NCBI GenBank assembly: GCA_965209165.1 | Contig: CBDBQI010000006.1 | Location: 258,891-322,890, forward strand | Source: Dehalococcoidia bacterium | GTDB taxonomy: Bacteria; Chloroflexota; Dehalococcoidia; Lucifugimonadales; CAJWER01 | Reading direction: 5' to 3' | Length of the DNA stretch: 64,000 bases | Shown here: positions 17,172-61,196 of the stretch, piece after piece | Numbering within the stretch: position 1 is the stretch's first letter | How the letters are laid out: each line of letters starts with the position of its first letter | Position numbers and translations under genes: made by a program | The notes under the pieces: generated by a model | Database searches by the model: none | What the model saw: the letters and a program-made list of their open reading frames with translations, nothing else | What the model was told of the DNA's origin: nothing

Positions 17172-17483
17172 CCTTCCCCTCCTTTCGTGGGGTATTTGTG
17201 ATGCACCCAAGATAAGAAGGAAATGTCGCAGAAATATGTCACCGGTAGACCGGATGGACATCTGCTTCGCCGATGCCCAGGGACTTGGGACGTCCCTATG
17301 ACCTAGGAGTTTCGAGAGCCGCTGGGACTCAGATTCTCCGCGGAGTCAATTGAGGGGATGTCTTCCGCAAACAGATAAGTGGGGACGCCGCATCGGTCTG
17401 TTTCTCGGAGTCGCGACCTGTAAGGCCACCAGATCCTGTCAGTTACAATCGATGCGCTCGCCCGCAGCTACTGGAGGAGAAAC

Positions 17484-20571: not shown

Positions 20572-20860
20572 GGAGGACGGCAGCCTCTTCAGTGGCCTGG
20601 CGGGGCTGCGCAGGACGACTCTGCACTACGACGAGTCGGGCACGCTGACGGACAGCACCTTCAACCCTCTCCCCCTCCGGCAGGACCTCGAGGCATTACG
20701 CTATCGTCCACCACCGACCTGGCGTGACTGTACCGAATCCGACGGCCCACGAGCAGCGCCGTTTTTTCGTTACCATTGCGTCAGACAATTGAGAATAGCA
20801 TCCTGTGTGTACTCTCTGGCGCCAGCTCGTGGGCTAGAAAGACAGAAAGGAGGAGCACAC

Positions 20861-23237: not shown

Positions 23238-23870
23238 CTAGTCCGCCTGTCCTGCGACGGCCGGCGACTTCGCCACCGCCACACCGATCATCGAGTCCCG
23301 TGTGACCAGGTCGGCCAGCTCGTCCTCCGTGAGGTCGTCCGTGCCGTCGGGGCGCTCCGGCAGCACCATGTACCGCAGAGTCGCGGTGCTGTCCCACACG
23401 CGGACCTCCTTGGACTCGGCGACGTCCACGCCGAACTCCCTCAGCACCACGCGGGGCTCCAGTACGACGCGGGACCGGTATGCGGGGTCCTTGTACCAGC
23501 TGGGAGCCAGGCCAAGTACCGGCCACGGGTAGCAGGAGCACAGCGTGCACACGACGACGTTGTGCACTTCGGGCGTGCTCTCCAGCACGACGATCTCCGC
23601 CCCCTCCGCGCCGCCGAAGCCAAGCTCGGCGATCGCGTCCGTGCCGTTCTCCAGGAGACGCTGCTTGTACTCAGGATCGACCCACGCCCTGGCTATAACC
23701 CTGGCGCCGTTCAGGGGGCCGATGTCCTGCTCGTATGTGCGTACCACCTCGTCGATTGCGTCGGTGGTGACGATGCCCTTCTCTACGAGAAGCGACTCGA
23801 GCGCCCGCGCGCGCACCGAGGCGTATGGCTCCGGATGTGGATGGTGATCGCCGTCGTGGTCTCCGCTCAT
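23238..23870 (-). CDS. nthA: Nitrile hydratase alpha subunit, cobalt type
   Basis: Metal-binding motif [11 protein letters not shown]. Thr in C-T-L-C-S-C indicates Co-type, whereas Fe-type has Ser. The ATG overlaps the beta-subunit stop (ATGA). Confidence 0.9.
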
Positions 23871-24550
23871 GTGTCGCTCCTTTCCGTTCCAGCAGGCTCG
23901 AGGTAGCCTTCCCACATGTCGATGTGCAGGGCCGTGCCCGGCTCGGCGGCGTCTCCCCAGAGCTCGGCGGCCTCGAACCTGACGCTGTAGAGCTGCTGCG
24001 CGGGCGCGTCCTCATGCTCGCGGCCCGGCTCCTCGTCCGGCAGGTCGTAGGCCGCGTAGACCGCCGCCACTGTCCCACGCCTGCCCTGGGCGTATCCGGG
24101 CAGCCTCGTATGCCCGCCGTGCTGGATCCGGCGAGTCCTCACGGGGTCTCCCACCGCAAACGCCGGAGGACGGCCAATCTGCCTGCGCACCTGGCGCTGC
24201 CGGTACATGTCCGCACGCACGCGCTCGGTCAGCTCAGGGTCGACGACGCGCGGGGGACGGGCTTCCGGGTTGTCGAGAAAGTGCTCGGCTTTCGCCTCCA
24301 GCTCCTCCGGGCTCAGCACGCCTCGCTCGACCAGCCCGCGCTCCAGGGCCGCCATCAACCGGTGGTAGTAGCCGGCCAGGTACACGTCCGGGTCGAGGCT
24401 CTCGATGGTGCTGCGCGAGAAGCCGCCCTTGACCGAGACCACGAGCCCGAACACCCTGCCCTCCCACTCGTCGTGGAAGACCGGCTCGTTCTCCTCGGGC
24501 TCCACGGGCCCGTAGCCCCGCACGCCGCCCATGTCGTGTATGCCTGCCAT
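23867..24550 (-). CDS. nthB: Nitrile hydratase beta subunit
   Basis: Trimmed to [16 protein letters not shown], the canonical NHase-beta N-terminus, followed by [11 protein letters not shown]. Confidence 0.85.
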
Positions 24551-24895
24551 AGTGATATGTTCGCCGCTAGTGATGGTGGTCCTTATGATCGTGGTCTCGA
24601 TGGCTCCCGCCGGGAGCCTCAGGGGCGTCCCTTCAACATCCGGGCTGCCCGGGGTTCCCACAGCAGACGCTTCGACGCTGGACCCTGACCTTCACGCTGC
24701 CGAGAAACATCAATATGCGGGCATGCCATGGATCGGACGCTGACAGGAGAATCCTGAATGACCGCCGCATATTGGCGATTAGGGGGAGCATGGCCGGCCC
24801 AGTTTACTGTCGAGAGCGCTGGTGGGCAAATCGCACCAGTCAGGGAGCGTCGAAGAAGCTGAACGAGTAGACCTCCGCGTCCCGCGCTGGAGCAT

Positions 24896-25000: not shown

Positions 25001-27487
25001 ATGATGAACCAGGTACTTGACAGGCTAAGCTGGCTGGTAACGGTTCGCCCGTACCTCACTATAGTCGTCCTCGTCGTCGTCGCCATAGCCCTGGCCGCGG
25101 GGGCTTCGCTGCGGCTCCCGCCGACCGAGGGGGCCGATGTCGCATTCCTGCCGCCCGGGCACCCCGTCGCCGATGCGACTCGCCAGGTCAGCGAGCTCTT
25201 CAGCGATTCGGGCGACATCCGCGTCGCAACCCTCATCTTCCGGGGCGAGGCGCTTACACCAGGCGGCCTTTCCCAGATGTCCTCGCTGATCGGCGACATC
25301 GCCGGCGACCCGGGCGTCGGCGGGCTCCTGGCTCCCGCCAACCCCATCGTCGCGCCGGCTCCCATCATCGGCGCCGCGTTGCAGGTGGACGACTTCGAGT
25401 CCGTCACCCAGGAGCAGATCGACTCCCTACGCAGCGTGCCGGAGGTCCAGGGAGCCCTCTCGGCCATGACGGGGACCGACAAGGACGGCTCGCCGGTCGC
25501 AATAGCCAACATCCGGCTGACCGATACGGGCGACGAGAGGACCGAGAACGCCGAACGGAGGGTCAGCGAGCTCGCCGCCGCGAGTGACGGTCCGCTGCAC
25601 GTGAGCAGCCTGTCCCCGGTGATCGTCGAGGACGAATACAAGCAGGCCACGGAGCAGGGAATGGCGCCGCTGATAGGGCTGGCCCTGCTGCTGATCGTGG
25701 TGCTGCTCCTGCTCTTCACCCGCGCCATCTCCGACATGCTGCTCACCCTGACGGGCCTGATCCTGTCTATCGCCGGCGTTGTCGGGGCGGAGGGCTGGCT
25801 CGGGCCGAACGGGCTGGGCCTGATAGGCCCTCCAAGCTCGCTCACAGCAATGGTGCCCGTCATCCTGATCAGCCTCACGGTGGACTACGCAATCCAGACC
25901 GTCTCCCACTACCGCGAGCAGCGTGTCGAGGGCCTGGCGGTTGCGGCTGCGGTGCGGACAGGGTTGAGACACGTCACCATTCCCTTGACGCTGGCCGCCG
26001 TCACGACGATCGTCAGCCTGCTGGCGACCCTGTTCTCGCCAATCGGGGTGATTGGCGACTTCGGCATCGTCGCGGGGTTGGGGGTGGGCATCAGCCTGCT
26101 GGTGATGCTGACGCTGATACCGGCCGGCAGGATACTCATCGACCGGCGGCGCGAGGCGAGAGGCACCCTCAAGCCCGCCCGCCCCATCTCGAACGCACTC
26201 CCCGGCATTCCGAAGGCGGCGGAGCTGCTTGGGAGGTGGGTGACGCATAGACCTGCGCCCTACCTCGTCGCCGTGCTCCTGGTGACGGCCGGCCTCGGAT
26301 ATGCGGCCACGGGCCTGGAGTCGGAATTCAGCATCAAGGACATCCTGCCCCGGGGCGGGGGAGTGCTGGAGGACATGAACACCCTGGAAGCTGCCGTCGG
26401 CGGCTCCACGGAGATCGCCAGCCTGCTCATCGAGGCCGAAGTAACTGAGTCCAGGACTCTCCTGAACCTCCACGACCTCACTTCCGCCTTCGAGGACGAG
26501 CAGCGCCGCCCGCGCGGCGCAGCAGGACCAATGCAGGGGTCTTACGAGAGGCTCGTGTACGACTGGACCAACGACTCCGGAGAGCCCGGCGACAAGTATG
26601 ATCCTGAGCTGGAAGCGCTCTTCCGCGAAGCCTCGCCCGGGGTGGAGCTCGATCCGGCGCTGATGCAGCAGGTCGTCGACGAGCTCGTCGCAAGAGAGCC
26701 CGACCTGGCGCACTTCCTGGTCAACAATCCGGATGGCCTCGACACGATGCTTCTCCAGTTCCCGATCTTCCCGAACGATCCCGTTGGGACCAGGATGCTT
26801 CACGAGGACATCGAAGAGCTCTGGCTCGGAGACGATAGCGCCGTCACGGCGACTTCGGCCAGCATCGTCGCGGTCGCCGTCACCGATCAGATCACCGACG
26901 GGCAGACGGAGTCGATCAGCACCACCATCGCCATCGCCCTGGGAATCCTCGCCATCTTCTTCTGGGTGACGCTGCGCCAGCCCGCGCTGGGGATAGTCGC
27001 CGTCGGCCCAATCGTGCTGGTCCTCATATCCGTGCTGGGCACCATGGCGCTGCTGGGCATTCCCTACACGCTCGTCACCTCGATCATCACGGCCCTGTCG
27101 ATAGGCATCGGGGTGGACTACACCATCCACGTCATCCATCGCTACCGGGAAGAGTTCACCCGGCTTCGCAACCCGGAGAGGGCGGCGATCCAGACCCTCG
27201 CGACCACCGGCTCTGCGCTGCTCGGCTCGGCACTGACGACGGCGTTCGGGTTCGGAGTGCTGATAGCGTCGCCGCTGCTGGCGTCGGCCCAGTTCGGCAT
27301 CACGGCCACCATCACCATCGTCTACTCCCTGGCAGTCTCGATCCTGGTGGTGCTGCCCGCCATGGTCGTTTGGGGCGCGTACCAGAACATGCGGATGCGC
27401 TCGATGGTCACGCGTATGTGGGACGACCTGGACGTGGCCATCGAGGACATCAGCAAACGCCACCACGGGGACGCCGCGCCGTCGTAG
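25001..27487 (+). CDS. MMPL/RND-superfamily (HAE3-like) lipid exporter, paralog 1
   Basis: Two repeats of a large extracytoplasmic loop followed by a TM bundle (LTVDYAIQTVSHYRE and IGVDYTIHVIHRYREE). Alignable end to end with 41583..44048. Start trimmed to ATG 25001. Confidence 0.85.
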   Translation: MMNQVLDRLSWLVTVRPYLTIVVLVVVAIALAAGASLRLPPTEGADVAFLPPGHPVADATRQVSELFSDSGDIRVATLIFRGEALTPGGLSQMSSLIGDIAGDPGVGGLLAPANPIVAPAPIIGAALQVDDFESVTQEQIDSLRSVPEVQGALSAMTGTDKDGSPVAIANIRLTDTGDERTENAERRVSELAAASDGPLHVSSLSPVIVEDEYKQATEQGMAPLIGLALLLIVVLLLLFTRAISDMLLTLTGLILSIAGVVGAEGWLGPNGLGLIGPPSSLTAMVPVILISLTVDYAIQTVSHYREQRVEGLAVAAAVRTGLRHVTIPLTLAAVTTIVSLLATLFSPIGVIGDFGIVAGLGVGISLLVMLTLIPAGRILIDRRREARGTLKPARPISNALPGIPKAAELLGRWVTHRPAPYLVAVLLVTAGLGYAATGLESEFSIKDILPRGGGVLEDMNTLEAAVGGSTEIASLLIEAEVTESRTLLNLHDLTSAFEDEQRRPRGAAGPMQGSYERLVYDWTNDSGEPGDKYDPELEALFREASPGVELDPALMQQVVDELVAREPDLAHFLVNNPDGLDTMLLQFPIFPNDPVGTRMLHEDIEELWLGDDSAVTATSASIVAVAVTDQITDGQTESISTTIAIALGILAIFFWVTLRQPALGIVAVGPIVLVLISVLGTMALLGIPYTLVTSIITALSIGIGVDYTIHVIHRYREEFTRLRNPERAAIQTLATTGSALLGSALTTAFGFGVLIASPLLASAQFGITATITIVYSLAVSILVVLPAMVVWGAYQNMRMRSMVTRMWDDLDVAIEDISKRHHGDAAPS

Positions 27488-27497
27488 GGAGGGGTGA

Positions 27498-28535
27498 ATG
27501 CAGCTTCACAGGCTAGCCAAGGGGCTCAGGGCCGCGTACCGTGACTCGGACGCCCGCAGCCGCGTGAGAGACCTCGACGGGTGGACGGACAGGGCGCAAG
27601 TGGACGGCGCCGGCCCGGGGAGCTACGACCACACCGAGACCGTCAGGGAATACTACGATCTCTGCAGCGAGTTCATGGTGTTCGGTTGGGGCGAGTCCCT
27701 CCACTTTGCGCCCCTGTCGCCCCGGGAGAGCCTGGAGGAATCCAAGGTCCGGCACCAGCGGCTGATGATTGACAAGCTGGAGCTGCGCGAGGGCATGACA
27801 GTGATCGACGTCGGTTGCGGGATCGGCGGCCCGATGCGCCGCGTTGCCCGGGAGGCTGGTGTCAGGGTGGTAGGGGTCAATAGCAGTGAAGTCCAGCTGG
27901 CGAAGGCGAAGGCGTTGAACGCCGAGGCGGGGCTCGACCACATGATCGACTACCTCGCGTGCAGCTTCATGGACATGGGCGCCGTCGCGGACGGCACATT
28001 CGACCGGGGATACGCGATCGAATCGACGTGCCACGCGCCGGACAAGGCGGGAGCGTTCGCCGAGATCTACCGCGTGCTGAAACCCGGAGCCCTCTTCTGG
28101 GGCCAAGAAATGTGCATGACGGACAAGTTCGATCCCGGCGACGACCGCCACCAGGCGACGAAAGAGGACCTGATGCACGGCATCGCCCTCAAGGATATCG
28201 CGACTATGGGCGAGGTGGACCGGGCGCTCGAAGCGGCGGGATTCCAGGTCATCGAGGTGAAGGACCGGGCCGTCGACGAGAACAGTCCGGTCACGCCGTG
28301 GTATCAGCCCATGGAGGCCCGGGGCAACACTCTGGGCAACGCCCTGCGCAGGACGCCGCTGGGCCGCAGGGCGCTCAAGGGGACATCAGGGCTGGCCGAA
28401 GCTCTGGGGATACTCCCGAAGGGGTCCGCGGATGTAATCGGGCTGATGGACCGTACCGCCAGGGCCTATGTCGCAGGCGGCAGGGCCGGAATCTTCACCC
28501 CGCTGTACTGTTTCTTGGCCCTCAAGCCCCGCTAG
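27498..28535 (+). CDS. ERG6/SMT-like sterol C-methyltransferase homologue 1
   Basis: YYDLCSEFMVFGWGESLHFAP, VIDVGCGIGGP (SAM motif I), YAIESTCHAPD, EIYRVLKPG and the C-terminal GIFTPLYCFLALKP tail are colinear with the yeast ERG6 motifs YYNLVTDFYEYGWGSSFHF / LDVGCGVGGP / YAIEATCHAP / LFTPMMLFVARKP. The start lies 10 nt after the exporter stop, with a GGGAGGGG RBS. Confidence 0.8.
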   Translation: MQLHRLAKGLRAAYRDSDARSRVRDLDGWTDRAQVDGAGPGSYDHTETVREYYDLCSEFMVFGWGESLHFAPLSPRESLEESKVRHQRLMIDKLELREGMTVIDVGCGIGGPMRRVAREAGVRVVGVNSSEVQLAKAKALNAEAGLDHMIDYLACSFMDMGAVADGTFDRGYAIESTCHAPDKAGAFAEIYRVLKPGALFWGQEMCMTDKFDPGDDRHQATKEDLMHGIALKDIATMGEVDRALEAAGFQVIEVKDRAVDENSPVTPWYQPMEARGNTLGNALRRTPLGRRALKGTSGLAEALGILPKGSADVIGLMDRTARAYVAGGRAGIFTPLYCFLALKPR

Positions 28536-28571
28536 ACGCTGCCCAGTCTCTCGGGGATTCCTGGGTGTGCC

Positions 28572-30596
28572 CTAGACGTTAATCTCGCGCCTCTGTTCGG
28601 CGATGTGGAACTTCAGCTTCTTGCTCGGCTTCATCGAGGGAAGCGGGTTGAACTTGAGCTTGTAGTTCGCCGGCGACACTTCGAGCGTGAAGTGGTGCGC
28701 GACCATCAGCAGGTTGACGGCAAGCTGGAGCTCCATCCACCGGGAGCCCAGACACGTGTGCGGGCCCAGCCCGTACGGTGCATATCCTGGACTGCGGTGT
28801 TCGTTGCGTGGAGGCAGGTAGCGGTCGATATCGAATTTGTAGGGCTCAGGGAAGACGTCCTCCATGAAGTGAGCCGCTGTCTGGGCAATGTAGATCCGCG
28901 ATCCCACAGGCAGCTCGTAGTTCTCTACCACGCACGAATTCATCACGTTTCGGATAGACACTGGGACGATCGGGTACATGCGCAGGCATTCCATGAGGAA
29001 GCGATGGGTCACGTCTATCGCGGGCGGAGCGAAGTCCCCACTGGCCGGGTCGCCGTTGTCGAACAGGGCGTCGGCTTCACTCCGGATACTGTCGTAAAGG
29101 TCCGGCTGTGACGCCATCGCGTACAACGCAAAGCTGAAGGCGTCGCCAAGGTACACGCTGGCGATCAACGCCGCTGCGAGCTGGAAACGCAGTGTCGTCT
29201 CCGGCACGAACTGTGGATCGCTTGCGTGCAGGCTCAGCCAGTCGTCCGCAAGGCTCCGCGGAGCATCTTCCCGCTGCGCTGATGTATGGACGCTCTGGAC
29301 CCGTTGCAGCAGCGTATCCACGGCCTTCGCCTTGCGTTTCATGCCCGGGGTGTTAAGCATGAACTTAGGCAGGACCTTCACGATGTGGACGAGGAGTGCT
29401 CGTTCCTTGTACTTCGCCAGGTCGTCAAAGATGTCCTGGGAGTCAACGCTGACAAAAAGCGGCGAGAGCTGCGAGTTGACCATCTGCCGGCTCATGCTCG
29501 TTGCAGAGAGGGTGTCTCCAACCGCCCACCCCGCCATGTGCCCCCGACCGCAGCTGTAGAGACTGTTCAGCTGCCCTTCCAGTCTATGGCGGGAATACGC
29601 CGCCGACATGGCCTTTCGAAGCCGGAAGTGGTCGGCGCCATCCATGGAGGGCATGACTCCAGACGCGCCGTAGACCTGCTCGAAGTCACTAAAATAGTCC
29701 TTGGTCCTCAGGTATATTCGACCTCGCCGATGGGCCCAGTGATTCGTTTCCGGGCCGGCCAGCACAATCATGGGTTTGGCAAACGGCGGGCGCAGCTCGA
29801 ACACCGGGCCATGCTCTTTTGCGATGTCCGCAAAGAACGCGGCAACGTTACCGTCGCGGACATGTGGATTGAAGAGCGCCTGGCGCAGTGGGACGACCGG
29901 TATCTTTTTCGTGAGTGAAGACTGCCGAAGCAGCGGGCCCGCGAGGTTGTGGGAGACAGCCGCGGCGATCGACCGTCCGATCAGGTCCATCCTGCAGATG
30001 AACTGGATGCGCTCCTCCGCCGCGTCGTCCAGGTTGAATATGAACCGGAAGACGTCGCACGTATTGATGAGACAGATGATGATCACATCTCGCGGGTCGG
30101 GAATCTCGTTGTTGAAGATCACCTGGCCGATTCGCGTCTTTACAAACTGGACCGCGTCGCCCTCCGGAGAGCTGAACATGTCCGCATGCCGTGCGGAATG
30201 CGTCACCGTCCAGTAATCGCCGGAGTGGTGCTCCAGGACATCCATCTCGACCAGCCTATCCAGGGTAGAGTCGATTATCGACTCGGCGCGTGGAGCAATC
30301 CGCTCGACCCAGTACTGGGCGTTCCGCTGCACCGGCTCGGAAGCGATCTCCTCCAGGATGGGGTCCAGGACGGGGTTGCCGGTCTCCGTCTTGTCCAGGA
30401 GGTACAGGGACTCCATGTCCGTGTCGATTCGAGACAGCAGCGAGAGCTCCGCGAGCACGGAGCCGGCCACGGCGCAGTTCAGGTCCCAGCCGGGCACCTG
30501 GTGAAAGTAGCCGCTCTCCTCGTTGAGCAGCATCAGTATCAGCTCTGAGGGCAGAGTTAGCTGCTGGGTTGCCACACCGTCTTCTGTGAGAGTCAT
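28572..30596 (-). CDS. Cytochrome P450 with N-terminal GPP34/GOLPH3-like domain
   Basis: C-terminal heme loop YGLGPHTCLGSRW. The N-terminal about 220 aa (LPSELILMLLNEESGYF...LNCAVAGSVLAELSLLSRI...DPILEEI...PDPRDVIIICLINTCDV) follow the GPP34-family pattern. Confidence 0.8.
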   Translation of the reverse strand: MTLTEDGVATQQLTLPSELILMLLNEESGYFHQVPGWDLNCAVAGSVLAELSLLSRIDTDMESLYLLDKTETGNPVLDPILEEIASEPVQRNAQYWVERIAPRAESIIDSTLDRLVEMDVLEHHSGDYWTVTHSARHADMFSSPEGDAVQFVKTRIGQVIFNNEIPDPRDVIIICLINTCDVFRFIFNLDDAAEERIQFICRMDLIGRSIAAAVSHNLAGPLLRQSSLTKKIPVVPLRQALFNPHVRDGNVAAFFADIAKEHGPVFELRPPFAKPMIVLAGPETNHWAHRRGRIYLRTKDYFSDFEQVYGASGVMPSMDGADHFRLRKAMSAAYSRHRLEGQLNSLYSCGRGHMAGWAVGDTLSATSMSRQMVNSQLSPLFVSVDSQDIFDDLAKYKERALLVHIVKVLPKFMLNTPGMKRKAKAVDTLLQRVQSVHTSAQREDAPRSLADDWLSLHASDPQFVPETTLRFQLAAALIASVYLGDAFSFALYAMASQPDLYDSIRSEADALFDNGDPASGDFAPPAIDVTHRFLMECLRMYPIVPVSIRNVMNSCVVENYELPVGSRIYIAQTAAHFMEDVFPEPYKFDIDRYLPPRNEHRSPGYAPYGLGPHTCLGSRWMELQLAVNLLMVAHHFTLEVSPANYKLKFNPLPSMKPSKKLKFHIAEQRREINV

Positions 30597-30785
30597 TAGC
30601 CTTGCCCCCCTTGAATGGCCTTGCTAGACTCGTTAGGTATGCGCCGCCCCTGGCACCGCAACCAATTGACACTTTAGCATACAGCGTTCAGAGGGCGCAT
30701 ATGACACTTGGGCTAAGGTTTCGACCAATGCAACTCGGCACGGCAGACGTGTCGCCCAGGGTTCCCTGCAAGGGGCGATAAGGCG

Positions 30786-31838
30786 ATGGCAACCCGGCGA
30801 CGAGTGCCCACGGAAGATGCGGTACTTTCCCCGTTTCCCGAGGGCTGGTACTTCGTAGCGACCCGCGAGGCAGTGCTGAAGGAGAAGCTCGTCCAGAAGA
30901 CCTGGATGGGCGAAAATGTCGTGGTCTGGTGCGACGACAACGGGCGCGTCTGCGTCGCCGAAGCCGTCTGCCCGCACCTTGGGGCCGACCTGGGGCCAGC
31001 AGCCGGGGGATGCATCCGCGGCGGGCGGCTGCTCTGCCCCTTCCACGGCTACGAATTCGACGCCACCGGCCAGTGCGTCGCCACTCCCTTCGCAGAGCCG
31101 CCCAGGACCGCTAAGCTGCGCGTCTTCGAAACCCAGGAGATATTCGGCCTCATCTTCGCCTGGTGGGGCACCGGGGGACGCGAGCCCCAGTGGAGCCTGC
31201 CCGTGGGAACGCTGGATGCGGAGGGCTGGAGCGGCTTCGAGATCAGCACCCTCCGCTTCCCGGGCCACCCACAGGAGACGACCGAGAATTCGGTGGACCT
31301 GGCCCACCTGCGCTACGTCCACGGCTACGACAATGTCGAGCCCGTCGAGGAGGCTTTGGTGGACGGCCACCTACTCCAGGCCAGTTTCGACTTCAAGAGA
31401 AAGAGGACTATCGCCGGCGCCGTCAATCTCATCTTCGACGTGTCGGCCAGCGCCAGCATCTACGGGCTGGGCTACTCGTTCGTGGATATCCGCGAGAAGT
31501 CCATTGGATTGAACATGCGCCTCTGGGTGCTGGCGACGCCGATCGACGGCACCCTCATAGACCTGACGCTGGTCTCGCAGGTGCGGGAGATCCGCAGCCC
31601 GAAGCGCCTGATAGTGGGCCTGGGGTTCCTCCCCGTCGGACTGCGCGCGCCCCTCATCAACAAGTTCATGGCGTCCCAGCAGAAGGACGACGTCGAGCAG
31701 GACGTCATCATCTGGAGCAACAAGCAGTACGTTTCGCGCCCGCGCCTCTGCCGCTCAGACGGCAGGATCATGCCATTCAGGTACTGCTGCGCCCAGTTCT
31801 ACCCCGACCCTGGCGACTCCAACGGCTCCACTCCCTAA
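30786..31838 (+). CDS. Rieske [2Fe-2S] non-haem iron oxygenase, KshA / cholesterol-7-desaturase-like
   Basis: CPHLG..(17)..CPFHG Rieske ligands, ENSVDLAHLRYVH mononuclear-iron motif, and C-terminal DVEQDVIIWSNKQY...DGRIMPFR tail. Confidence 0.8.
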   Translation: MATRRRVPTEDAVLSPFPEGWYFVATREAVLKEKLVQKTWMGENVVVWCDDNGRVCVAEAVCPHLGADLGPAAGGCIRGGRLLCPFHGYEFDATGQCVATPFAEPPRTAKLRVFETQEIFGLIFAWWGTGGREPQWSLPVGTLDAEGWSGFEISTLRFPGHPQETTENSVDLAHLRYVHGYDNVEPVEEALVDGHLLQASFDFKRKRTIAGAVNLIFDVSASASIYGLGYSFVDIREKSIGLNMRLWVLATPIDGTLIDLTLVSQVREIRSPKRLIVGLGFLPVGLRAPLINKFMASQQKDDVEQDVIIWSNKQYVSRPRLCRSDGRIMPFRYCCAQFYPDPGDSNGSTP

Positions 31839-31910
31839 GACGGGAGAGGGCTAGGAAGTCCGCTCACCCTAAGCCGGGATGGTAAGCCGCACCCGCCGCC
31901 CCTCTGGGTT

Positions 31911-31929
31911 CCCCGTATCGAGTACGGGG
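31911..31929. repeat. Hairpin CCCCGTA-N5-TACGGGG (family D hairpin module)
   Basis: ccccgtatcgagtacgggg. The same stem with the reverse-complemented loop occurs at 58794..58812. Confidence 0.5.
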
Positions 31930-31989
31930 CAGGCTCTGCCTCCGCAGGAACGACGATTGGGTGAGCAGTGTCAGCTCTGTACTCCTGCG

Positions 31990-33348
31990 CTATGCCTTCC
32001 TGAACCGCGACCCGTACAGGATCCCCCCGTAGTAGTTGAACCACCCCTTCGCCTCGACATCGTCGAACGGGTAGTCCGCGCCCAGCTGCCTTGCGGCGGC
32101 GAGCCCGGTCACGAAGCAAGTCTCCTGGCTGTTCACCAGCGTGTGGGCGCCGCAGTGCCACGACCGACGCCTGCCTTGGATGAACCGGAATAGGTAGACG
32201 AGCAGCGCCACGTGCCGCACGTCATGGACGACGTGCTGGAACGTTCGCCTCCCGATGACCTTCCCCTCGTCGATGGGGTTGACCGCGTTGTAGGTCACAA
32301 GGCAGGGCTTGTCCGACCCGCCGGCCCACGGCTGCTGGTTGTGCATGATGTACGTGATCTCGTAGTTATCCGGCTTCGCGCCGTACTGCTCGATGTAGTT
32401 GCTCCGCGTCCCCAGCGGCTTCGCCTCGTTGTCAGGCAGCACTGAAGCGTCCGAGTGGACGACCGCCCGGCCGTGGAGCGAGTCGTCGTAGCGTATCGAC
32501 GACAGTATGTAGCGCTCGAGAAACGTGGGCTTGTCGAGAATCGCCAGCGTCTGGTTCGCGTTGCACGCGAATACCACCTCGTCGAACGTCTCCCTTACGC
32601 CCTCCTCGTCCTCGACCACCACGCGCTCGGCCTCCCTGTACACCTTCCGGACGGGCCGTCCCAGGTAGATCTTGTCCCGGAAGTCCACCGACAGGTTCTC
32701 GTAGATGCGCCGCGTTCCCCGGTCCCACGTGTGCAGGGGAGTGGCGGACTCGATGTCGAAGAACTCCAGGTACCTCGCGAACAGCGCCGCGGGCATGGAG
32801 AACACGTCCGTCGCCATCAGGAAGTTGACGAACATCGGCTTCAGTACCTTGTACCTGAAGTCGTCGGAGAACCCGCCCAGCCTCAGGACCGTCCCCATGC
32901 TGACGTAGTTGAACGGGTTGAGCGCGTTCAGCAGCTTCGACCGGGAGCGGGTCAGCCAGCCGATCCGGTGGAGCCGGCCCAGGACCCGCTGGAACTTCTC
33001 GATCTCGGGCTGGAGCTGCTCCCTTAGGTCGGAGTCGAAGTCGTGGGCGTAGAGTTGGCCGCCGTACCTCACGCTGTAGCTGAACCTGGTGTCGACCAGC
33101 TCGATGCCGAACCGCTCCATCAGCAGCAGGATGTGGTGGTACACGGACGGAATGCAGGCCGTGACGGAAATGTCGAAGGGGATCGAGCTACCGTCGTCCT
33201 GCGGCATGTCTGCCGTAACCGCGTTCCCGCCGATCTGAGCCTCGGCCTCGAACAGCCGGAAGTCGAACCGGTCCGCGTGGTGGCTCAGCGCCCACGCGGC
33301 GCCCAGCCCCGAAACGCCCCCGCCGACAATGGCAATCCGCCGCACCAC
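31990..33348 (-). CDS. FAD/NAD(P)-binding amine-oxidase-fold oxidoreductase
   Basis: GTG start with an AAGGAGAGG RBS. The N-terminal Rossmann motif is IAIVGGGVSGLGAAWAL. Overall it resembles the flavoproteins often found next to lipid methyltransferase or cyclopropane synthase genes. Confidence 0.7.
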   Translation of the reverse strand: MVRRIAIVGGGVSGLGAAWALSHHADRFDFRLFEAEAQIGGNAVTADMPQDDGSSIPFDISVTACIPSVYHHILLLMERFGIELVDTRFSYSVRYGGQLYAHDFDSDLREQLQPEIEKFQRVLGRLHRIGWLTRSRSKLLNALNPFNYVSMGTVLRLGGFSDDFRYKVLKPMFVNFLMATDVFSMPAALFARYLEFFDIESATPLHTWDRGTRRIYENLSVDFRDKIYLGRPVRKVYREAERVVVEDEEGVRETFDEVVFACNANQTLAILDKPTFLERYILSSIRYDDSLHGRAVVHSDASVLPDNEAKPLGTRSNYIEQYGAKPDNYEITYIMHNQQPWAGGSDKPCLVTYNAVNPIDEGKVIGRRTFQHVVHDVRHVALLVYLFRFIQGRRRSWHCGAHTLVNSQETCFVTGLAAARQLGADYPFDDVEAKGWFNYYGGILYGSRFRKA

Positions 33349-35123: not shown

Positions 35124-35399
35124 TTGAGTGAAGGGCAAGTGAACAACACGTGGCAGGTGCAGGAAGCCAAGGCGCGCTTCAGCGAGATGCTGGAGACGTC
35201 CCTGGCCGACGGCCCTCAAGTCGTCACCAAGCATGGTGTCGAGACAGCAGTGCTCGTCCCTATCGAGGAGTGGCGCCGCTTGGTGCGCATGACCAAGCCG
35301 AACCTCAAAGAACTGCTCCTCGCCCCCGAGCCCCGTACCGATGCGCTGACACCCCCACGACGTGAGCTCTCTCGACGCGAGCCCCCCAGGCTCGACTAG
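35124..35399 (+). CDS. Phd/YefM-type antitoxin (VapB-like)
   Basis: WQVQEAKARFSEMLE...GPQVVTKHGVETAVLVPIEEW is the typical Phd/YefM N-terminal fold. TTG start (a GTG 15 nt downstream is possible). Immediately upstream of the PIN toxin. Confidence 0.7.
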   Translation: MSEGQVNNTWQVQEAKARFSEMLETSLADGPQVVTKHGVETAVLVPIEEWRRLVRMTKPNLKELLLAPEPRTDALTPPRRELSRREPPRLD

Positions 35400-35404
35400 A
35401 CCGC

Positions 35405-35836
35405 TTGTACCTTCTCGACACCAACATAGTCTCCGAGCTGCGCCGGACTAGGCCGCACCCCTCGGTGCTACAGTGGATACAGGGAGTGCCAGCAGAGCAG
35501 CTCTACCTGTCCGCGGTCACCATTGGCGAACTCCAGGCGGGAATCGAAATCACTCGAGAACAGGACCCCGTCCGGGCGAGCGAACTGGAAACTTGGCTCC
35601 ATATGGTCATGGACACCTACAGCATACTTGACATGGACGCAACCGCCTTCCGAGAGTGGGCAAGGCTCATGCACCGCCAGTCCAACACCCTAATCCAAGA
35701 TGCCTTAATAGCCGTTGTCGCCAACGTCCACAGGCTAACCGTCGTGACCCGCAACGTCAGAGACTTCGAGCAGCTCGGTGTCCAAGTGCTCGATCCGTTC
35801 GCCCTTCCTGGATCGACCCCGACCAGGAGAACCTGA
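35405..35836 (+). CDS. vapC: PIN-domain toxin VapC
   Basis: YLLDTNIVSE (first acidic residue), TIGELQAGI, and ALIAVVANVHRLTVVTRNVRDF (C-terminal acidic residue). Confidence 0.8.
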   Translation: MYLLDTNIVSELRRTRPHPSVLQWIQGVPAEQLYLSAVTIGELQAGIEITREQDPVRASELETWLHMVMDTYSILDMDATAFREWARLMHRQSNTLIQDALIAVVANVHRLTVVTRNVRDFEQLGVQVLDPFALPGSTPTRRT

Positions 35837-41582: not shown

Positions 41583-44048
41583 ATGGACAAGACGCTCACC
41601 GTTCTGAGCGGGCTGGTCACGGCCCGGCCGTACCTAACGCTCGGGGCGCTTCTCATTGTCACCGTCCTGCTGGGTGCAGGGGGAACGCTGCGCGCGCCGC
41701 CGCCGGACATCGCGGCGACGCTTCCAAAGGGGAGCGCCGTCGCCGACGCCCTGGACCGGATAGACGACCTGTTCGGGGAGTCGGGCGATGTCAGGGTTGC
41801 AACGCTGCTCTTCCGCGGCGAGGCCATGACGCCCGGCGGTCTCGGGCAGATGGCGTCCCTCGTCGAGGACATCGCCGCCGACCCGGGGGTGAGAGAGCTG
41901 CTGACCCCAGTCGATCCCGTCGTCTCGCCTTCCCTGCTGATCATGGCCCTTCTGCAGGTGGATGGCTTCGAGTCCGTGACACAGGCGGACATCGACGCCC
42001 TCTCAGGCCCCCCGGAGGTCCTGGGAATCCTCGGTGCGATGACGGGGACCGACACGGACGGCACCCCAGTCGCGGTCGCGTCGATCCGCATGCTCGACAC
42101 GGGCGACGAGCGGGTCAAGGACGCTGAACGCAGGATCCACGAGCTGGCGACCGGCGACGAGGGCCCGCTGCGCGTGAGCAGTATCTCGTTTGCAGTGATA
42201 GAGGACGAGTCCCGGGAGGCGGTCGAGTCGGGGATGGGGCCGTTGATAGGGCTGGCCCTGCTGCTGATCGCCGGCCTGATCCTGCTCTTCATGCGCACGA
42301 TCTCAGACCTCCTGCTCACGCTCTCAGGGCTGCTCATGTCGCTGGTCTGGATCATTGGAGCCGAAGGCTGGCTGGGACCCAATGCGCTGGGCCTCACCGG
42401 CCCGCCCAACTCCCTGACGTCTATGGTGCCGATCATCATAATCGGCCTGACGGTGGACTACGCGATTCAGGCGGTCTCCCACTACCGCGAGCGGCGCGTC
42501 GCAGGTGAACCCGTGCTGGGCGCGGTACGCACGGGACTGCGCAACGTCACTATTCCGCTGGTGCTGGCTGCGGTGACGACGATCGTGAGCCTCCTGGTGA
42601 GCCTCTTCTCCCCGTTGGAAATCGTCGGGGACTTCGGCATCATCGCTGGGATGGGCGTGGGAATGAGCTTGATCGTGATGCTCACGCTGATTCCTGCCGG
42701 ACGTACGATCATCGACCGGCGGCGCGAGGCCCGCGGCTCGTTGCCCCCGGCCCGCCCTATATCCAGCGCATTGCCAGGCATCGAGAGGATGGCGGAGCTA
42801 TTGGGGAGGCAGGTAACACGCAGGCCCGCTCCCTACATCATCGTCGTGGTCGCCGTCACAATAGGGCTCGGGTACGCGGCCACGGGCATCGAGTCCGAAT
42901 TCAGCATCCGCGACCTGCTTCCCAGGGGCGGCAGCGTGCTCGAGGACCTGAACACGCTCGACTCCTCCGTCGGCGGCTCGACGGAGATGACCAGCATCCT
43001 GGTGACGGCCGAGGCGACGGAGACCCGCACGCTCCTGAACATTCAAGACCTCGAAATAGCCTTCCGGGATGACGAGCGGCGGCCACCTGCGGCAGCCGGC
43101 CCTATTGTGACTTCGTACGAGCTGCTCGTGCAGGACTGGACTACCGACAGCGGCGAGCCGGGAGACAAGTATGACCCGGAGCTCGCTGCGCTCTTCGAGG
43201 AAGCCTCCGCGGGAGTCCGGCTCGACCCGGGGCTGATGCAGGAGTTCCTCGACAGGCTCGAGGCGAAGGATCCCGCCGTCGCGCACAGCCTGGTGAACGA
43301 ACCGGATCGCGTCGACACCATACTGCTCCAGTTCCCGGCTTACACGGGCGATCCCGAGGCGAGCAAGCAGCTGCAGGGAGACATAGAAGAGCTCTGGTTC
43401 GGCGTCGACGACGCCATCACCGCGACTTCGGACAGCATCATCTCGTTCGCGGTCACGGATGCCATCAGGGACCGGCAGACCGAGTCGATCGCCACGACCA
43501 TCCTCGTCGCCCTCGTCGTCCTCGCCTTCTTCTTCTGGCTGACGGTGCGCCAGGCGGCCCTGGCGATCGTGGCGGTCGCGCCGACCGCGCTGGTGCTCAT
43601 CTCGGTGCTGGGTACGATGGCGCTGCTCGACATCCCGTACACCATCATCACGTCGATCATCACGGCTCTCTCCATCGGGATCGGGGTGGACTACACCATT
43701 CACATGATCCACCGCTACCGCGAGGAGTTCACCCGCCTGCGCAACCCGGAGCAGGCGGCCGTCCAGACACTCGCGACGACCGGCTCGGCGCTGCTCGGCT
43801 CCGCGCTGACGACGGCGCTCGGCATAGGGGTACTGGCTGCCTCGCCGCTAGCCGCGTCCCAGCAGTTCGGCATCACGGCGGCGATAACCATCGCCTATTC
43901 GCTGCTGGTCTCCATCCTGGTCGTGCCCCCAGCCATGACTGTGTGGGGCGCGTACCAGAACATGCGGCTGCGCTCCATGGTGAAGCGCCAGTGGGATGAG
44001 CTCGACCTTGCGATAGAAGACATACACAGGCGCCACGGTGAGGCGTAG
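41583..44048 (+). CDS. MMPL/RND-superfamily (HAE3-like) lipid exporter, paralog 2
   Basis: Colinear with 25001..27487 (for example FRGEAMTPGGLGQMASL vs FRGEALTPGGLSQMSSL, and LTVDYAIQAVSHYRER vs LTVDYAIQTVSHYREQ). Confidence 0.85.
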   Translation: MDKTLTVLSGLVTARPYLTLGALLIVTVLLGAGGTLRAPPPDIAATLPKGSAVADALDRIDDLFGESGDVRVATLLFRGEAMTPGGLGQMASLVEDIAADPGVRELLTPVDPVVSPSLLIMALLQVDGFESVTQADIDALSGPPEVLGILGAMTGTDTDGTPVAVASIRMLDTGDERVKDAERRIHELATGDEGPLRVSSISFAVIEDESREAVESGMGPLIGLALLLIAGLILLFMRTISDLLLTLSGLLMSLVWIIGAEGWLGPNALGLTGPPNSLTSMVPIIIIGLTVDYAIQAVSHYRERRVAGEPVLGAVRTGLRNVTIPLVLAAVTTIVSLLVSLFSPLEIVGDFGIIAGMGVGMSLIVMLTLIPAGRTIIDRRREARGSLPPARPISSALPGIERMAELLGRQVTRRPAPYIIVVVAVTIGLGYAATGIESEFSIRDLLPRGGSVLEDLNTLDSSVGGSTEMTSILVTAEATETRTLLNIQDLEIAFRDDERRPPAAAGPIVTSYELLVQDWTTDSGEPGDKYDPELAALFEEASAGVRLDPGLMQEFLDRLEAKDPAVAHSLVNEPDRVDTILLQFPAYTGDPEASKQLQGDIEELWFGVDDAITATSDSIISFAVTDAIRDRQTESIATTILVALVVLAFFFWLTVRQAALAIVAVAPTALVLISVLGTMALLDIPYTIITSIITALSIGIGVDYTIHMIHRYREEFTRLRNPEQAAVQTLATTGSALLGSALTTALGIGVLAASPLAASQQFGITAAITIAYSLLVSILVVPPAMTVWGAYQNMRLRSMVKRQWDELDLAIEDIHRRHGEA

Positions 44049-45006: not shown

Positions 45007-45019
45007 GATCCTCCTGCAG

Positions 45020-49711: not shown

Positions 49712-49743
49712 GACCCCATCTCTGGAGCAAGGGGCATTCAGTC

Positions 49744-50889
49744 ATGATCGAATGGCTTGGCATCGAACACCTCTTCGAGCTCTCCGGGACCGAGGCGATC
49801 GCGGGGTTCCTCACCCCGCTGGCGATCTTCGCCGTCTTCTTCGTGGCGCAGCTCATACTGCCGGCGAGGCGGGTTACCGGCTACGTCATCAACCCGGAGA
49901 CGGGCGAGCCCCGCAACTACCGGCTGAACGGCATCCTGGTGTTCGTCATCGCCATCGTCGTGTGGGCATTCGTCTTGGAGCGTATCGGAATACCCCGCGA
50001 CTGGTTCTACCGTTCCTCCATCTATGCGGTGGCCGGCGGGACGGTCTTCTGCTTCATCTTCTCGCTCTGGGCGCTCCTCAGCCAGCCGGAGGGGCACATA
50101 AAGAACCCCTTCCTCGCCTTCTGGGAAGGGCGTTCATTGGAGCTGCCCTTCTTCAACGAGCGCTTCGACGTCAAGATGTACCTGTACGTCGTCGGCGGGA
50201 CGATGTTGTCGCTCAACGCCCTGTCAGGCGCCGCGTACCACTACGAGCTCTTTCCCGAAAACCCCAACCCGGGCGTCTTTCTGTTCGCGGGGTTCCTCAC
50301 GTTCTACGTGTTCGATTACTTCATCTTCGAGCGCGTCCAGCTATACACCTACGACCTGATCCACGAGCACCTCGGCTTCAAACTGATCTGGGGAGGCCTC
50401 GTCATCTACGGATGGCTCTACATACTCCCGCTGTGGGGCATGGCCGTCCACCCGGACCCCGGCTTCTCGACGCCGCTGGCTTATGTCTGGCTCATCGTAA
50501 CGGCCACGCTGTTCATGGTCGGGTGGGGCATCTCGCGCGGCGCGAACATGCAGAAGTACACCTTCAAGCGCTGGCCCGACCGCAAGTTCCTCGGACTCAT
50601 CGAGCCCGAGTACATCCAGGCCGGCGAGCGCAAGATCCTGTGCAGCGGCCTGTGGGGTTACGCCCGTCACTTCAACTACCTCGGCGAGGGGTTCGCCTCC
50701 TTCTCGATGGGGCTGGCATTCGGCCACTTCGGCAATCCCTGGGCATGGACCTACTTCGTCTTCATCGTATCGCTGTTCACCTGGCGCCAGACGGTCGACG
50801 AGAAGAACTGTGCCGAGAAGTACGGGGCGGAGAAGTGGGCCGAGTACCGGAAGCGGGTGAAGTACCGGATTCTTCCCGGCATCTATTGA
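49744..50889 (+). CDS. ERG4/ERG24-family sterol reductase homologue
   Basis: About 8 TM segments. C-terminal signature LWGYARHFNYLGEGF ... DEKNCAEKYGAEKWAEYRKRVKYRILPGIY matches the family hallmarks (RHxNYxGE; KYGxxWxxYxxxVxYRIxPxIY). Confidence 0.85.
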   Translation: MIEWLGIEHLFELSGTEAIAGFLTPLAIFAVFFVAQLILPARRVTGYVINPETGEPRNYRLNGILVFVIAIVVWAFVLERIGIPRDWFYRSSIYAVAGGTVFCFIFSLWALLSQPEGHIKNPFLAFWEGRSLELPFFNERFDVKMYLYVVGGTMLSLNALSGAAYHYELFPENPNPGVFLFAGFLTFYVFDYFIFERVQLYTYDLIHEHLGFKLIWGGLVIYGWLYILPLWGMAVHPDPGFSTPLAYVWLIVTATLFMVGWGISRGANMQKYTFKRWPDRKFLGLIEPEYIQAGERKILCSGLWGYARHFNYLGEGFASFSMGLAFGHFGNPWAWTYFVFIVSLFTWRQTVDEKNCAEKYGAEKWAEYRKRVKYRILPGIY

Positions 50890-60170: not shown

Positions 60171-61196
60171 CTAGTCCGGCTTGCGCGCGTGGATGAAGTA
60201 CATCGGCGTGAAGATGCCGAGCCGGCCCGCCCCCGCCATGGCTGACGCGCAGAGATTCAGGGTTCCCGACACGCGGACCGTTCCCTGAGGCACGATGCGG
60301 AGTGCCTCTAGCACCTTCAGCGAGCTGTGGGTCACCCAGCGTCCGATAGTGGAGCTGCGGAAGGCGGCGAGGGAGAGTCCCAACCCCACGAGGGGCTGGT
60401 ACCACGGAATCGACGGGCCGGACTGCACTGCGAGGTCACGCGTCTCCAGCACCTCGAATCCCACCGTTCGAAGCGCGTCATCGACCGTCGGCGCATCGTC
60501 GATTATGAGCAGCCCGCCACCCAGCTGAATGTCGGCCTTGAGCTTGACGTGGACGGGGTCGCTCGCGTCGAAGCGGTCGGTCACGCAGTATTCGTAGGCG
60601 CCGAAGTGCGCGCCCGGCTTCAAGAGGCGAAAGACCTCGCTGTAGATGCTGACCTTGTCCGGCGCGCAGCAGCTTGCCTCGATCGAGTAGGCTGCGTCGA
60701 ACGATTCGTCCGAGGCATCCACGTCCAGGAAGTCGCATTGCAGGAAATCGGCCAGGTGAGCGAGGCCCGCCTCTCCGGTCAGTTTCCGGGCGCGTTCGAG
60801 CTGATAGCCATTGCTGTTTATGCCGACGACCCTGGCGCCCGAAGTGCGGGCAATCTCAATCAAAGGCCCGCCAACGCCGCAGCCAATGTCGGCCACTACC
60901 ATCTCCGGTCCGAGGCCAAGCGCCTGCGACATGAATCGCTCATGGCGTGCCAGCGACTCCTTGAAGCTCTCCCCCGGCACACGGGGCGCAAAGTGAAAGG
61001 ATCTGCCCCAGCCATACTCGAATAAGTCGGTGACCAGGTCGTAGTAGAGATTGTTGACCTTCTCGTGCTCGCCCTCTTGCCCTACGGGGGCGCCGCCCTC
61101 GGCCGCCCTGAAGCGGTCCTCGTATTCGCTGACGGCCGGATCGACACCGGAGGTGCCGGGTTGCTCCTTCAGGATTTCGGAGAGCTTGACAGGCAT
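60171..61196 (-). CDS. ERG6/SMT-like sterol C-methyltransferase homologue 2
   Basis: NNLYYDLVTDLFEYGWGRSFHFAPR, VADIGCGVGGP, YSIEASCCAPD, EVFRLLKPG, IPWYQPL and the C-terminal GIFTPMYFIHARKP are very close to the ERG6 motif set. Trimmed to the ATG at 61194-61196. Confidence 0.8.
   Translation of the reverse strand: MPVKLSEILKEQPGTSGVDPAVSEYEDRFRAAEGGAPVGQEGEHEKVNNLYYDLVTDLFEYGWGRSFHFAPRVPGESFKESLARHERFMSQALGLGPEMVVADIGCGVGGPLIEIARTSGARVVGINSNGYQLERARKLTGEAGLAHLADFLQCDFLDVDASDESFDAAYSIEASCCAPDKVSIYSEVFRLLKPGAHFGAYEYCVTDRFDASDPVHVKLKADIQLGGGLLIIDDAPTVDDALRTVGFEVLETRDLAVQSGPSIPWYQPLVGLGLSLAAFRSSTIGRWVTHSSLKVLEALRIVPQGTVRVSGTLNLCASAMAGAGRLGIFTPMYFIHARKPD

Follow-up and report, generated by a model that had tools for sequence, protein, structure and literature searches.

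A conserved five-gene module that joins a divergent sterol methyltransferase paralog to an MMPL pump in sponge-associated Dehalococcoidia

The five-gene module and its distribution

Five adjacent genes in a 64,000-nucleotide stretch of Dehalococcoidia DNA (contig CBDBQI010000006.1; the whole stretch is called the window here) encode an MMPL-type transporter, a relative of the sterol methyltransferases (SMT), a GPP34-cytochrome P450 fusion, a Rieske oxygenase and a flavoprotein. A preliminary description of the window had interpreted them as genes for the methylation and oxidation of a sterol-type lipid that is handed to a dedicated exporter. The open reading frame (ORF) calls place all five genes at the coordinates given there, and the features of the module are as follows.

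25001..27487, plus strand: MMPL/HAE3-type transporter of the RND superfamily, 828 aa (Pfam MMPL)
27487..27497, plus strand: junction of 10 nt with the Shine-Dalgarno-like sequence GGGAGGGG (direct sequence reading)
27498..28535, plus strand: SMT1-type sterol-methyltransferase paralog, 345 aa (Methyltransf_11 and Sterol_MT_C)
28572..30596, minus strand: GPP34 (GOLPH3-like)-cytochrome P450 fusion, 674 aa (Pfam), convergent with SMT1
30597..30785, no strand: divergent intergenic region of 189 nt between the P450 fusion gene and the Rieske gene (ORF calls)
30786..31838, plus strand: KshA-like Rieske non-heme-iron oxygenase, 350 aa (Rieske and KshA_C)
31990..33348, minus strand: LkcE-like flavoprotein with an amine-oxidase fold, 452 aa (Amino_oxidase/NAD_binding_8)

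All five proteins retain their cofactor or catalytic motifs. The stop codon of the transporter gene (TAG, 27485-27487) is followed by GGGAGGGG and then by the ATG of the methyltransferase gene at 27498, which agrees with the 10-nt gap and ribosome binding site originally described, and because of this junction the two genes are considered to form an operon. A terminator scan found no terminator-like site between them, and the promoter and terminator scans gave nothing above chance. The divergent region, for which the earlier length of 189 nt is correct, has no sigma-70-type consensus, a result that is weakly informative for Chloroflexota, and is presumed to hold a bidirectional promoter.

Conservation was studied in contigs from one genome per species, where 426 pattern-matched stretches encode a relative of the methyltransferase and the best 80 of these were used. 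The window proteins were compared by tblastn with a set of 81 loci that extend 10 kb to each side of the SMT1 homolog. In 72 of the 81 loci the gene immediately before the SMT1 homolog encodes an MMPL protein, and the GPP34-P450 gene is convergent and directly downstream in 69. A Rieske homolog is present in 62, either after the P450 gene or upstream of the MMPL gene, and a flavoprotein homolog lies within 10 kb in 47. The same five families rank first when all neighbours are clustered without supervision (148 loci), and the GPP34-P450 gene adjoins the SMT1 homolog in 104 of 135 loci. The spacing is also conserved: a same-strand gap of 5-27 nt between MMPL and SMT1 genes occurs in about 46 of 65 related loci, and the stop codons of the SMT1 and P450 genes are 18-59 nt apart in about 65 of 76. 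The nitrile hydratase and amidohydrolase genes that flank the module in the window recur in the two or three closest genomes only. Dozens of species-level genomes have this arrangement within otherwise different surroundings, so it is not a chance grouping; at least 70 species-level Dehalococcoidia genomes contain it.

The next-ranked neighbours of the module are an LppX/LprG-type lipoprotein (Pfam 1.1e-11; 23 loci) and a major facilitator superfamily (MFS) transporter (24 loci), which we take to resemble the mycobacterial LprG-P55 lipid export pair. The lipoprotein gene overlaps the start of the MFS gene (for example at 5043-7318 of locus L017 and 3776-6147 of locus L013), and this pair is absent from that position in the window. 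In a relative that is 92% identical (L001/L003, 14378-15171) an insertion sequence (IS) element with DUF4096 and DDE_Tnp_1 domains lies between the Rieske and flavoprotein genes.

More than 1,800 relatives of the methyltransferase were found; the best 120 are 78-92% identical to it, and the named ones are from Chloroflexi metagenome-assembled genomes (MAGs). The best 80 of the 426 stretches belong to Dehalococcoidia, Chloroflexota or SAR202 MAGs, with one exception, a Candidatus Poriferisocius, and the bin names of many point to sponges (APA, SB066x, COS, RHO). Over the module, identity to the closest genome is 94-99%, and the flanking nitrile hydratase genes are shared as well. An exact-sequence look-up of the window methyltransferase gave no recorded entry. 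All metagenome relatives that could be traced come from sponges, namely Aplysina aerophoba, Petrosia ficiformis or Sarcotragus foetidus (sources: PMC10070321), and the window is therefore assigned to a sponge-associated member of the Dehalococcoidia. Eukaryote-like proteins encoded near the module in relatives (ankyrin, LRR/WD40 and alpha-2-macroglobulin proteins) are consistent with sponge association.

The module proteins and their paralogs

The methyltransferase, called SMT1 here, had been described as an ERG6/SMT1-like enzyme. Its domain content agrees with this, but it falls into a clade of its own, in which Region I is altered. SMT1 matches Methyltransf_11 (5.9e-18), Methyltransf_25 and, at residues 283-344, Sterol_MT_C (PF08498; 1.5e-14, 54.3 bits against a Pfam cut-off of 21.7 bits). 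Its glycine-rich S-adenosylmethionine (SAM) motif VIDVGCGIGGP aligns with LDVGCGVGGP of ERG6, and the C-terminal tail string GIFTPLYCFLALKP is present. The window encodes a second SMT that is unlinked to the module.

60171..61196, minus strand: SMT2, a canonical SMT, 341 aa from an internal ATG (Sterol_MT_C)

SMT2 matches Sterol_MT_C at 3.4e-22 (78.8 bits), and both SMT-like proteins in the window have the C-terminal domain of sterol methyltransferases, so that the earlier proposal, for which a lack of this domain would have counted as refutation, is not refuted on this point. Between the two, identity is 44%. Compared with yeast ERG6, SMT1 shows 37% identity over 332 aa (E 7e-70) and SMT2 40% (E 3e-84); like all ERG6 identities in this report, these values serve as a lead only. 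SMT2 has the Region I sequence FEYGWGRSFHF, and the pattern F[YF]E[YF]GWGxSFHF is common to SMT2, ERG6 and the SMT that is linked to an oxidosqualene cyclase (OSC) in a sponge Nitrospira. In SMT1, however, Region I is FMVFGWGESLHF and not the canonical YEYGWGxSFHF, and its signature, FM[V..][FWY]GW[GSN]ESLHF, is kept across about 135 SMT1-type homologs. A neighbour-joining tree of SMT1-type sequences, ERG6, SMT2 and the OSC-linked Nitrospira SMT placed the SMT1-type sequences in one clade, separate from the other three, in 50 of 50 bootstraps, and 15 substitutions are fixed and specific to this clade. Judged by its sequence, the MMPL-linked methyltransferase is a distinct paralog and not an ordinary ERG6-like enzyme, and the altered Region I suggests that it uses a substrate or a position other than that of the canonical C-24 enzymes. 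A PDB search with SMT1 found no SMT structure; the entry 6f5z, named '24-sterol C-methyltransferase', gave a weak and partial match (29 bits, query residues 89-201).

In four loci (L015, L023, L056 and L077) an SMT2-type gene is 3-7 kb away from the module, and in L009, L043, L058 and L071 such a gene shares the chromosome with the module. In the window (60171-63809) SMT2 is divergent from an MFS transporter gene, after which comes a gene for a 259-aa protein with no family match, and the mechanical SMT2 ORF starts 37 codons upstream of the likely ATG.

The transporter was said to be a 12-TM MMPL/RND protein, and this is what the family and hydropathy results indicate. It matches Pfam MMPL at 2.4e-42, with additional matches to the sterol-sensing/Patched SSD families, and has 12 hydrophobic segments in a 1+5/1+5 pattern with two large predicted extracytoplasmic loops. 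The mechanical ORF begins at a GTG at 24944; the ATG at 25001 gives a protein of 828 aa, the length of the homolog called in the closest relative. The best NCBIfam family is HAE3 (TIGR00921), with 197 bits against a cut-off of 352. The other lipid pump families score 101 bits against 752 and 73 against 1100 (HpnN), 22 against 1400 (BstA) and 41 against 1400 (MmpL3). The pump was rejected as an HpnN or BstA ortholog because these scores are far under the cut-offs. The best PDB matches are the SSD region of Patched-1 and HpnN (5khn), both with about 48 bits, and the sterol-sensing region of NPC1 is also among them.

HpnN, MmpL3 and BstA are characterised bacterial RND/MMPL lipid pumps, all of which work outward; their respective substrates are hopanoids, trehalose monomycolate and sterols, and BstA is said to export sterols in Methylococcus. 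Like them, the window pump is a 12-TM RND protein with an MMPL domain and is encoded beside lipid-making genes. Unlike for BstA, no BstB- or BstC-like partners were seen beside the window pump, although no search aimed at them was made. By analogy with the three characterised pumps, export is the more likely direction of transport.

A second pump of this type is encoded in the window.

41583..44048, plus strand: second MMPL/HAE3 paralog (Pfam MMPL 3e-42, with SSD matches), unlinked to the module

It scores 194 bits for NCBIfam HAE3 and is considered a paralog because it aligns at 63-71% with the same gene as the module pump in related loci. A relation of this second pump to the module is possible. 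In the same region (41583-46631) the gene is preceded by genes for two Yip1-domain membrane proteins and a bacterial-PH-like protein and is followed by genes for a 262-aa protein with no family match and a MATE transporter.

The third gene encodes, as described, a P450 with an N-terminal GPP34 domain. Pfam places GPP34 at residues 15-214 (2.4e-26) and p450 at residues 411-662 (9.4e-34), and the protein has the heme-Cys loop YGLGPHTCLG, an ExxR motif and a PERF-like motif; the previously quoted motif YGLGPHTCLGSRW is present. The arrangement of an N-terminal PF05719 and a C-terminal PF00067 domain in one polypeptide is kept in 33 aligned homologs with a mean column identity of 66%. In the PDB, the P450 domain is nearest to 7wzl, M. 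capsulatus CYP51, CYP120 and a taxadiene hydroxylase, all at about 60-70 bits; it shares only 24-28% identity with CYP51 from the Nitrospira operon described below, and its family has no name. A pairwise PDB search with the GPP34 domain alone gave no match, but a profile built from 33 GPP34 domains matches GOLPH3 (3kn1, 3e-10) and Vps74. Four residues that bind phosphatidylinositol 4-phosphate (PI4P) in GOLPH3, W81, R90, R171 and R174 (PMC3596250), align with V34, A44, E105 and I108 of the window protein in an alignment that is remote (3kn1/9qpq; mean posterior 0.71).

The same fusion was reported in 2025 under the name GPP34_L, with 656 proteins from 16 phyla that occur exclusively in sponge symbionts, presence in 80% of sponge Dehalococcoidia MAGs and expression in A. 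aerophoba (PMC11706023). The authors proposed that it is a secreted, PI4P-binding effector that acts against phagocytosis, and the words 'sterol', 'methyltransferase' and 'MMPL' do not occur in the text of that paper. The window fusion has the identical two-domain architecture and a matching taxonomic setting; however, its gene is an integral part of a sterol-type module and the PI4P residues are not conserved. Inspection by eye (no prediction tool was used) did not reveal a signal-peptide-like segment at its N-terminus. Together with the intact P450 motifs, the unconserved PI4P residues and the fixed pairing with SMT1, this favours a cytoplasmic, membrane-associated enzyme.

The Rieske protein is of the KshA type, as had been proposed. 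It matches Rieske (1.9e-17) and KshA_C (8.1e-24, 85 bits), is similar along its whole length to Rhodococcus KshA (4qdc, 1.5e-24) and contains the iron motifs CPHLG...CPFHG and DLAHLRYVH as well as ENSVDLAHLRYVH. It has the Rieske cluster and mononuclear-iron motifs of KshA, a 3-ketosteroid 9-alpha-hydroxylase to which the Rieske sterol oxygenases Neverland/DAF-36 and SdmA are related; in contrast to KshA, it has no KshB-type reductase gene beside it, and the context is not catabolic. No KshB-like reductase is encoded by the window ORFs that were scanned or by the genes conserved around the module. The possibility that the protein is SdmA was rejected, since it scores 39 bits against a cut-off of 600 for SdmA (NF052579), in the Rieske part only, and is 24% identical to a true SdmA homolog.

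The amine-oxidase fold proposed for the flavoprotein agrees with Pfam (Amino_oxidase 1.8e-14, with NAD_binding_8 also matched), but its relatives do not tie it to sterols. Along its whole length it is similar to LkcE (6f7l, 3.5e-26), the lankacidin amide oxidase/cyclase, and more weakly to 2b9w, a 'putative aminooxidase' that is presumably the P. acnes polyenoic fatty-acid (double-bond) isomerase. Both have the amine-oxidase FAD fold and full-length similarity to the window protein, but neither acts on sterols, and by sequence the flavoprotein is LkcE-like and not a known sterol enzyme.

Relation to sterol synthesis and to published clusters

On two A. aerophoba contigs, a search for the DCTAE motif revealed a 1,220-aa fusion of squalene monooxygenase (SMO) and OSC, designated SMO::OSC, with an SMT1-type gene a few kb away. 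Homologs of the fusion are named Nitrospira sp. In the longer contig MPMZ01000005.1 (L151), which encodes an identical protein and is from a sponge Nitrospira MAG, positions 968-18503 form one continuous sterol island, which was also found in L096, L097, L150 and L152. Its genes are, in order:

Gene 1: flavoprotein, 81% identical to the window copy
Gene 2: HAE3/MMPL pump, 23% identical to the window pump
Gene 3: sdmB homolog (NCBIfam, 316 bits)
Gene 4: sdmA homolog (NCBIfam, 410 bits)
Gene 5: ERG24
Gene 6: CYP51-like P450
Gene 7: SMO::OSC fusion
Gene 8: canonical SMT
Gene 9: KshA-like Rieske remnant, 59% identical over residues 246-341
Gene 10: SMT1-type methyltransferase, 72% identical to the window copy
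Gene 11: GPP34-P450 fusion, 73% identical to the window copy

Close homologs of three module proteins (flavoprotein, SMT1-type methyltransferase and GPP34-P450) thus flank a de novo sterol operon in Nitrospira, where a Rieske remnant and an HAE3-type pump that is unrelated to the window pump are also present. An SMT1-type protein with 76% identity is also encoded in an Acidimicrobiia genome (Candidatus Poriferisocius). Between Chloroflexota, Nitrospira and Acidimicrobiia the SMT1-type proteins share 72-76% identity, and such high values across phyla indicate horizontal transfer among sponge symbionts. For the sterol core pathway too, the sequence relationships suggest a recent horizontal spread among these bacteria.

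As noted in the preliminary description, the window has no epoxidase or cyclase gene: none was found among the approximately 50 ORFs scanned for families, and no DCTAE-type motif occurs in the window. OSC, squalene-hopene cyclase (SHC) and epoxidase genes are also absent within 10 kb of the module in all 80 one-genome-per-species loci, nearly all of which are labelled Dehalococcoidia or Chloroflexota, and none of the best 120 of 496 SMO::OSC homologs is on a module-bearing chromosome. Since no core genes are near the module, the sterol may be self-made, or it may come from neighbouring symbionts or from the host. The same best 120 of 496 SMO::OSC proteins are 72-100% identical among entries with Nitrospira, Acidimicrobiia and Rhodospirillales names.

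One further sterol-related gene is present in the window.

49744..50889, plus strand: ERG4/ERG24-family sterol-reductase-like membrane protein (Pfam ERG4_ERG24 6.3e-38), unlinked in the window

The best PDB match of this protein is the delta14-sterol reductase MaSR1 (4quv, 7e-36). Homologs are found no more than 10 kb from the module in seven loci, with tandem pairs in L068, L071 and L081. With ERG24 from the Nitrospira operon it shares only 32% identity. In view of this and of the tandem paralogs beside the module, the protein could be a sterol reductase of another type, for example one for the side chain. Immediately upstream is a gene for a small class I methyltransferase (48844-50889).

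Sterol genes have been described in sponge bacteria before (PMC10070321, PMC9531527). Activity of bacterial SMTs from sponge metagenomes was demonstrated in 2023, in a study that lists identities of 35-42% to ERG6 for bacterial SMT homologs (PMC10070321); both window SMTs fall within this range (37% and 40%). Among Ircinia symbionts, Dehalococcoidia MAGs included, there is an enrichment of SMT and ERG24-CYP51-LSS operons (PMC9531527). These published clusters come from the same habitat as the window module and contain SMTs of the same family, with Sterol_MT_C. Unlike them, the window is without the core OSC, SMO, CYP51 and sdmAB genes, and its module instead pairs a divergent SMT with an MMPL pump, a GPP34-P450, a KshA-like Rieske oxygenase and an LkcE-like flavoprotein.

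The A. aerophoba cluster of PMC10070321 has the order sdmB, sdmA, ERG24, ERG11, SMO::OSC, SMT, one intervening gene, SMT, and the gene order of MPMZ01000005.1 equals genes 16 to 9 of that cluster. The last of these genes, 'SMT 2 of 2', is given as 35.2% identical to ERG6 (PMC10070321), and the Nitrospira SMT1-type protein is 34.5% identical to ERG6. Because of the equal gene order and these similar identities, an SMT1-type gene in the same position has probably already been cloned by Brown et al. in 2023. None of the 67 metagenome relatives of SMT1 is one of the Brown et al. contigs Ga0209021_1000146, LXNJ01000389 and LXNJ01004423. MMPL, RND, P450, Rieske and Chloroflexi are unmentioned in the main text and the available supplements of PMC10070321, and neither the MMPL-SMT coupling nor the five-gene module is described in any paper that a literature search found. 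The module is real and differs from the known bacterial sterol gene clusters by its gene set.

The remainder of the window contains features of other kinds. The nitrile hydratase alpha and beta subunit genes directly upstream of the module are at 23238-24661, and a SulP sulfate permease gene with a STAS domain is beside a sulfatase gene at 18778-22333. On the other side, 3' of the amidohydrolase gene that adjoins the module, is a Phd/YefM antitoxin and PIN-domain toxin pair (35124-35836). Two DmpA/S58 peptidase paralogs are encoded at 17484-18551 and 58864-59859. Proteins of 548 aa (15615-17261) and 559 aa (35656-37335) have no Pfam family, and a 31%-identical paralog of the latter is encoded beside the module in L003. 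A stretch of low GC content at 54130-58079 (54-58%, compared with about 65% elsewhere) contains an IS1-like transposase gene and an IS21-type istA/istB pair. An Rfam scan of the window identified no RNA family.

Possible functions of the module

The reading that we favour, with modest confidence, is that the module is an accessory part, for sterol tailoring and transport, of a pathway that circulates among sponge bacteria. A membrane sterol, derived from the cell itself, from neighbouring symbionts or from the host, would receive a methyl group from SAM at a side-chain double bond through the SMT1-type enzyme. The cytoplasmic P450 would oxygenate the sterol, with the GPP34 domain serving as a membrane- or lipid-docking module and not as a PI4P reader, the KshA-like Rieske oxygenase would hydroxylate or desaturate it, and the LkcE-like flavoprotein would oxidise or isomerise it. 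The presumably co-transcribed MMPL/HAE3 pump would then shuttle the lipid, at the expense of the proton gradient, between the cytoplasmic membrane and the surface or surroundings of the cell. The tailoring half of the original proposal is strengthened by the conserved synteny and by the Nitrospira operon, but the export half comes from family precedent. Several results weigh against the favoured reading. The pump is under every curated NCBIfam cut-off for HAE3, HpnN, BstA and MmpL3, and its Nitrospira counterpart is only 23% identical to it. Region I of SMT1 is not canonical, and SMT1 stands alone in a minority of genomes. Cyclase and epoxidase genes are missing from the window and from the 10 kb around the module in the 80 loci, none of the best 120 of 496 SMO::OSC homologs is on a module-bearing chromosome, and the window showed no reductase or ferredoxin that could serve the Rieske or P450 enzyme as a partner.

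The strongest competitor, which we nevertheless consider unlikely, is that the Dehalococcoidia make no sterol and scavenge it from the host. The MMPL protein would serve in uptake in the manner of NPC1 and Patched, and the enzymes would remodel the sterol for the cell's own membrane or for use as a signal. The missing cyclase and epoxidase genes in the 80 loci and the placement of the best 120 of 496 SMO::OSC homologs on other chromosomes would fit this explanation, as would the Patched-1 and NPC1 sterol-sensing regions among the PDB matches of the pump and the apparently strict sponge association of the family. If Chloroflexota have a single membrane, a route for export that spans the envelope would be needless. 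On the other hand HpnN, MmpL3 and BstA all move lipid outward, and the Nitrospira version of the module is beside a complete de novo operon. ERG24-CYP51-LSS operons also occur in sponge Dehalococcoidia MAGs, according to PMC9531527, which argues against Dehalococcoidia that make no sterol.

It is improbable, though less so than the two explanations that follow it, that the enzymes act on squalene, a hopanoid or a carotenoid-like lipid that the MMPL pump exports. The eukaryote Botryococcus has SMT-family triterpene methyltransferases that methylate the linear triterpenes squalene and botryococcene, and they provide a precedent for a changed substrate choice in this family. The divergent Region I of SMT1 is in keeping with such a change, and HpnN is the second-best family of the pump. 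The nearest solved relatives of the flavoprotein are not sterol enzymes, and the core pathway is absent nearby in the Dehalococcoidia. However, Sterol_MT_C is retained, an operon with an OSC is surrounded by the same set of genes in Nitrospira, the module occurs together with canonical SMT and ERG4/24-like genes, and the best full-length match of the Rieske protein is the steroid hydroxylase KshA.

The published proposal for the GPP34-P450 would make it a secreted, PI4P-binding protein that blocks phagosome maturation, with neighbouring genes that are unrelated to it. The restriction of the expressed fusion to sponge symbionts across 16 phyla (PMC11706023) is in line with such a role, as is the recognition of GOLPH3 and Vps74 by the GPP34 profile. 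We nonetheless regard it as very improbable for the window protein: no signal-peptide-like segment was visible by eye (no prediction tool was used), the intact heme loop and ExxR motif imply a need for cytoplasmic redox partners, the PI4P residues are replaced by V34, A44, E105 and I108, and the convergent pairing with SMT1, with its spacing of 18-59 nt in about 65 of 76 loci, is also found across phyla.

Actinobacterial P450s start the degradation of the cholesterol side chain, and the best matches of the Rieske protein are KshA, but a fragment of a steroid catabolic pathway with a KshA-like ring hydroxylase and a side-chain P450 deserves hardly any credence, since SAM methyltransferases belong to anabolism, the genes lie in a biosynthetic setting in Nitrospira, and the window and the conserved neighbours contain no KstD, Hsa, FadD/E or Mce-type genes, the lack of catabolic neighbours being the reason for rejection.

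Returning to sterol tailoring, the most interesting function for SMT1-type enzymes would be methylation at a position other than C-24, and we know of no C-26 methyltransferase. A 26-SMT could convert delta-25(27) sterols such as codisterol and clerosterol to side chains of the aplysterol or 26-methylstigmastane type. If so, sponge bacteria of several phyla would make or finish the sterols that serve as Neoproterozoic 'sponge' biomarkers and release them through an RND pump, and the GPP34-P450 would be a sterol enzyme. This proposal is a long shot. The steranes 24-isopropylcholestane and 26-methylstigmastane have been read as the earliest chemical evidence of animals. The missing enzyme for non-canonical side-chain methylation is named as the key gap for the 26-methyl biomarker in PMC10070321, and in 2025 it was still debated whether the enzymes for unusual steranes belong to sponges or to bacteria (PMC12541326, PMC10070321).

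The module gives a set of clonable candidates for a non-canonical tailoring of sterols in symbionts, because its SMT paralog is distinct, restricted to sponges and altered in the sterol-binding motif, and hundreds of symbiont genomes carry it, mostly together with the same oxygenases and usually with a pump. The presence of the GPP34-P450 in the module offers a testable alternative to an effector role for this protein. Within sponges, genes for sterol tailoring appear to move among the Chloroflexota, Nitrospirota and Actinomycetota.

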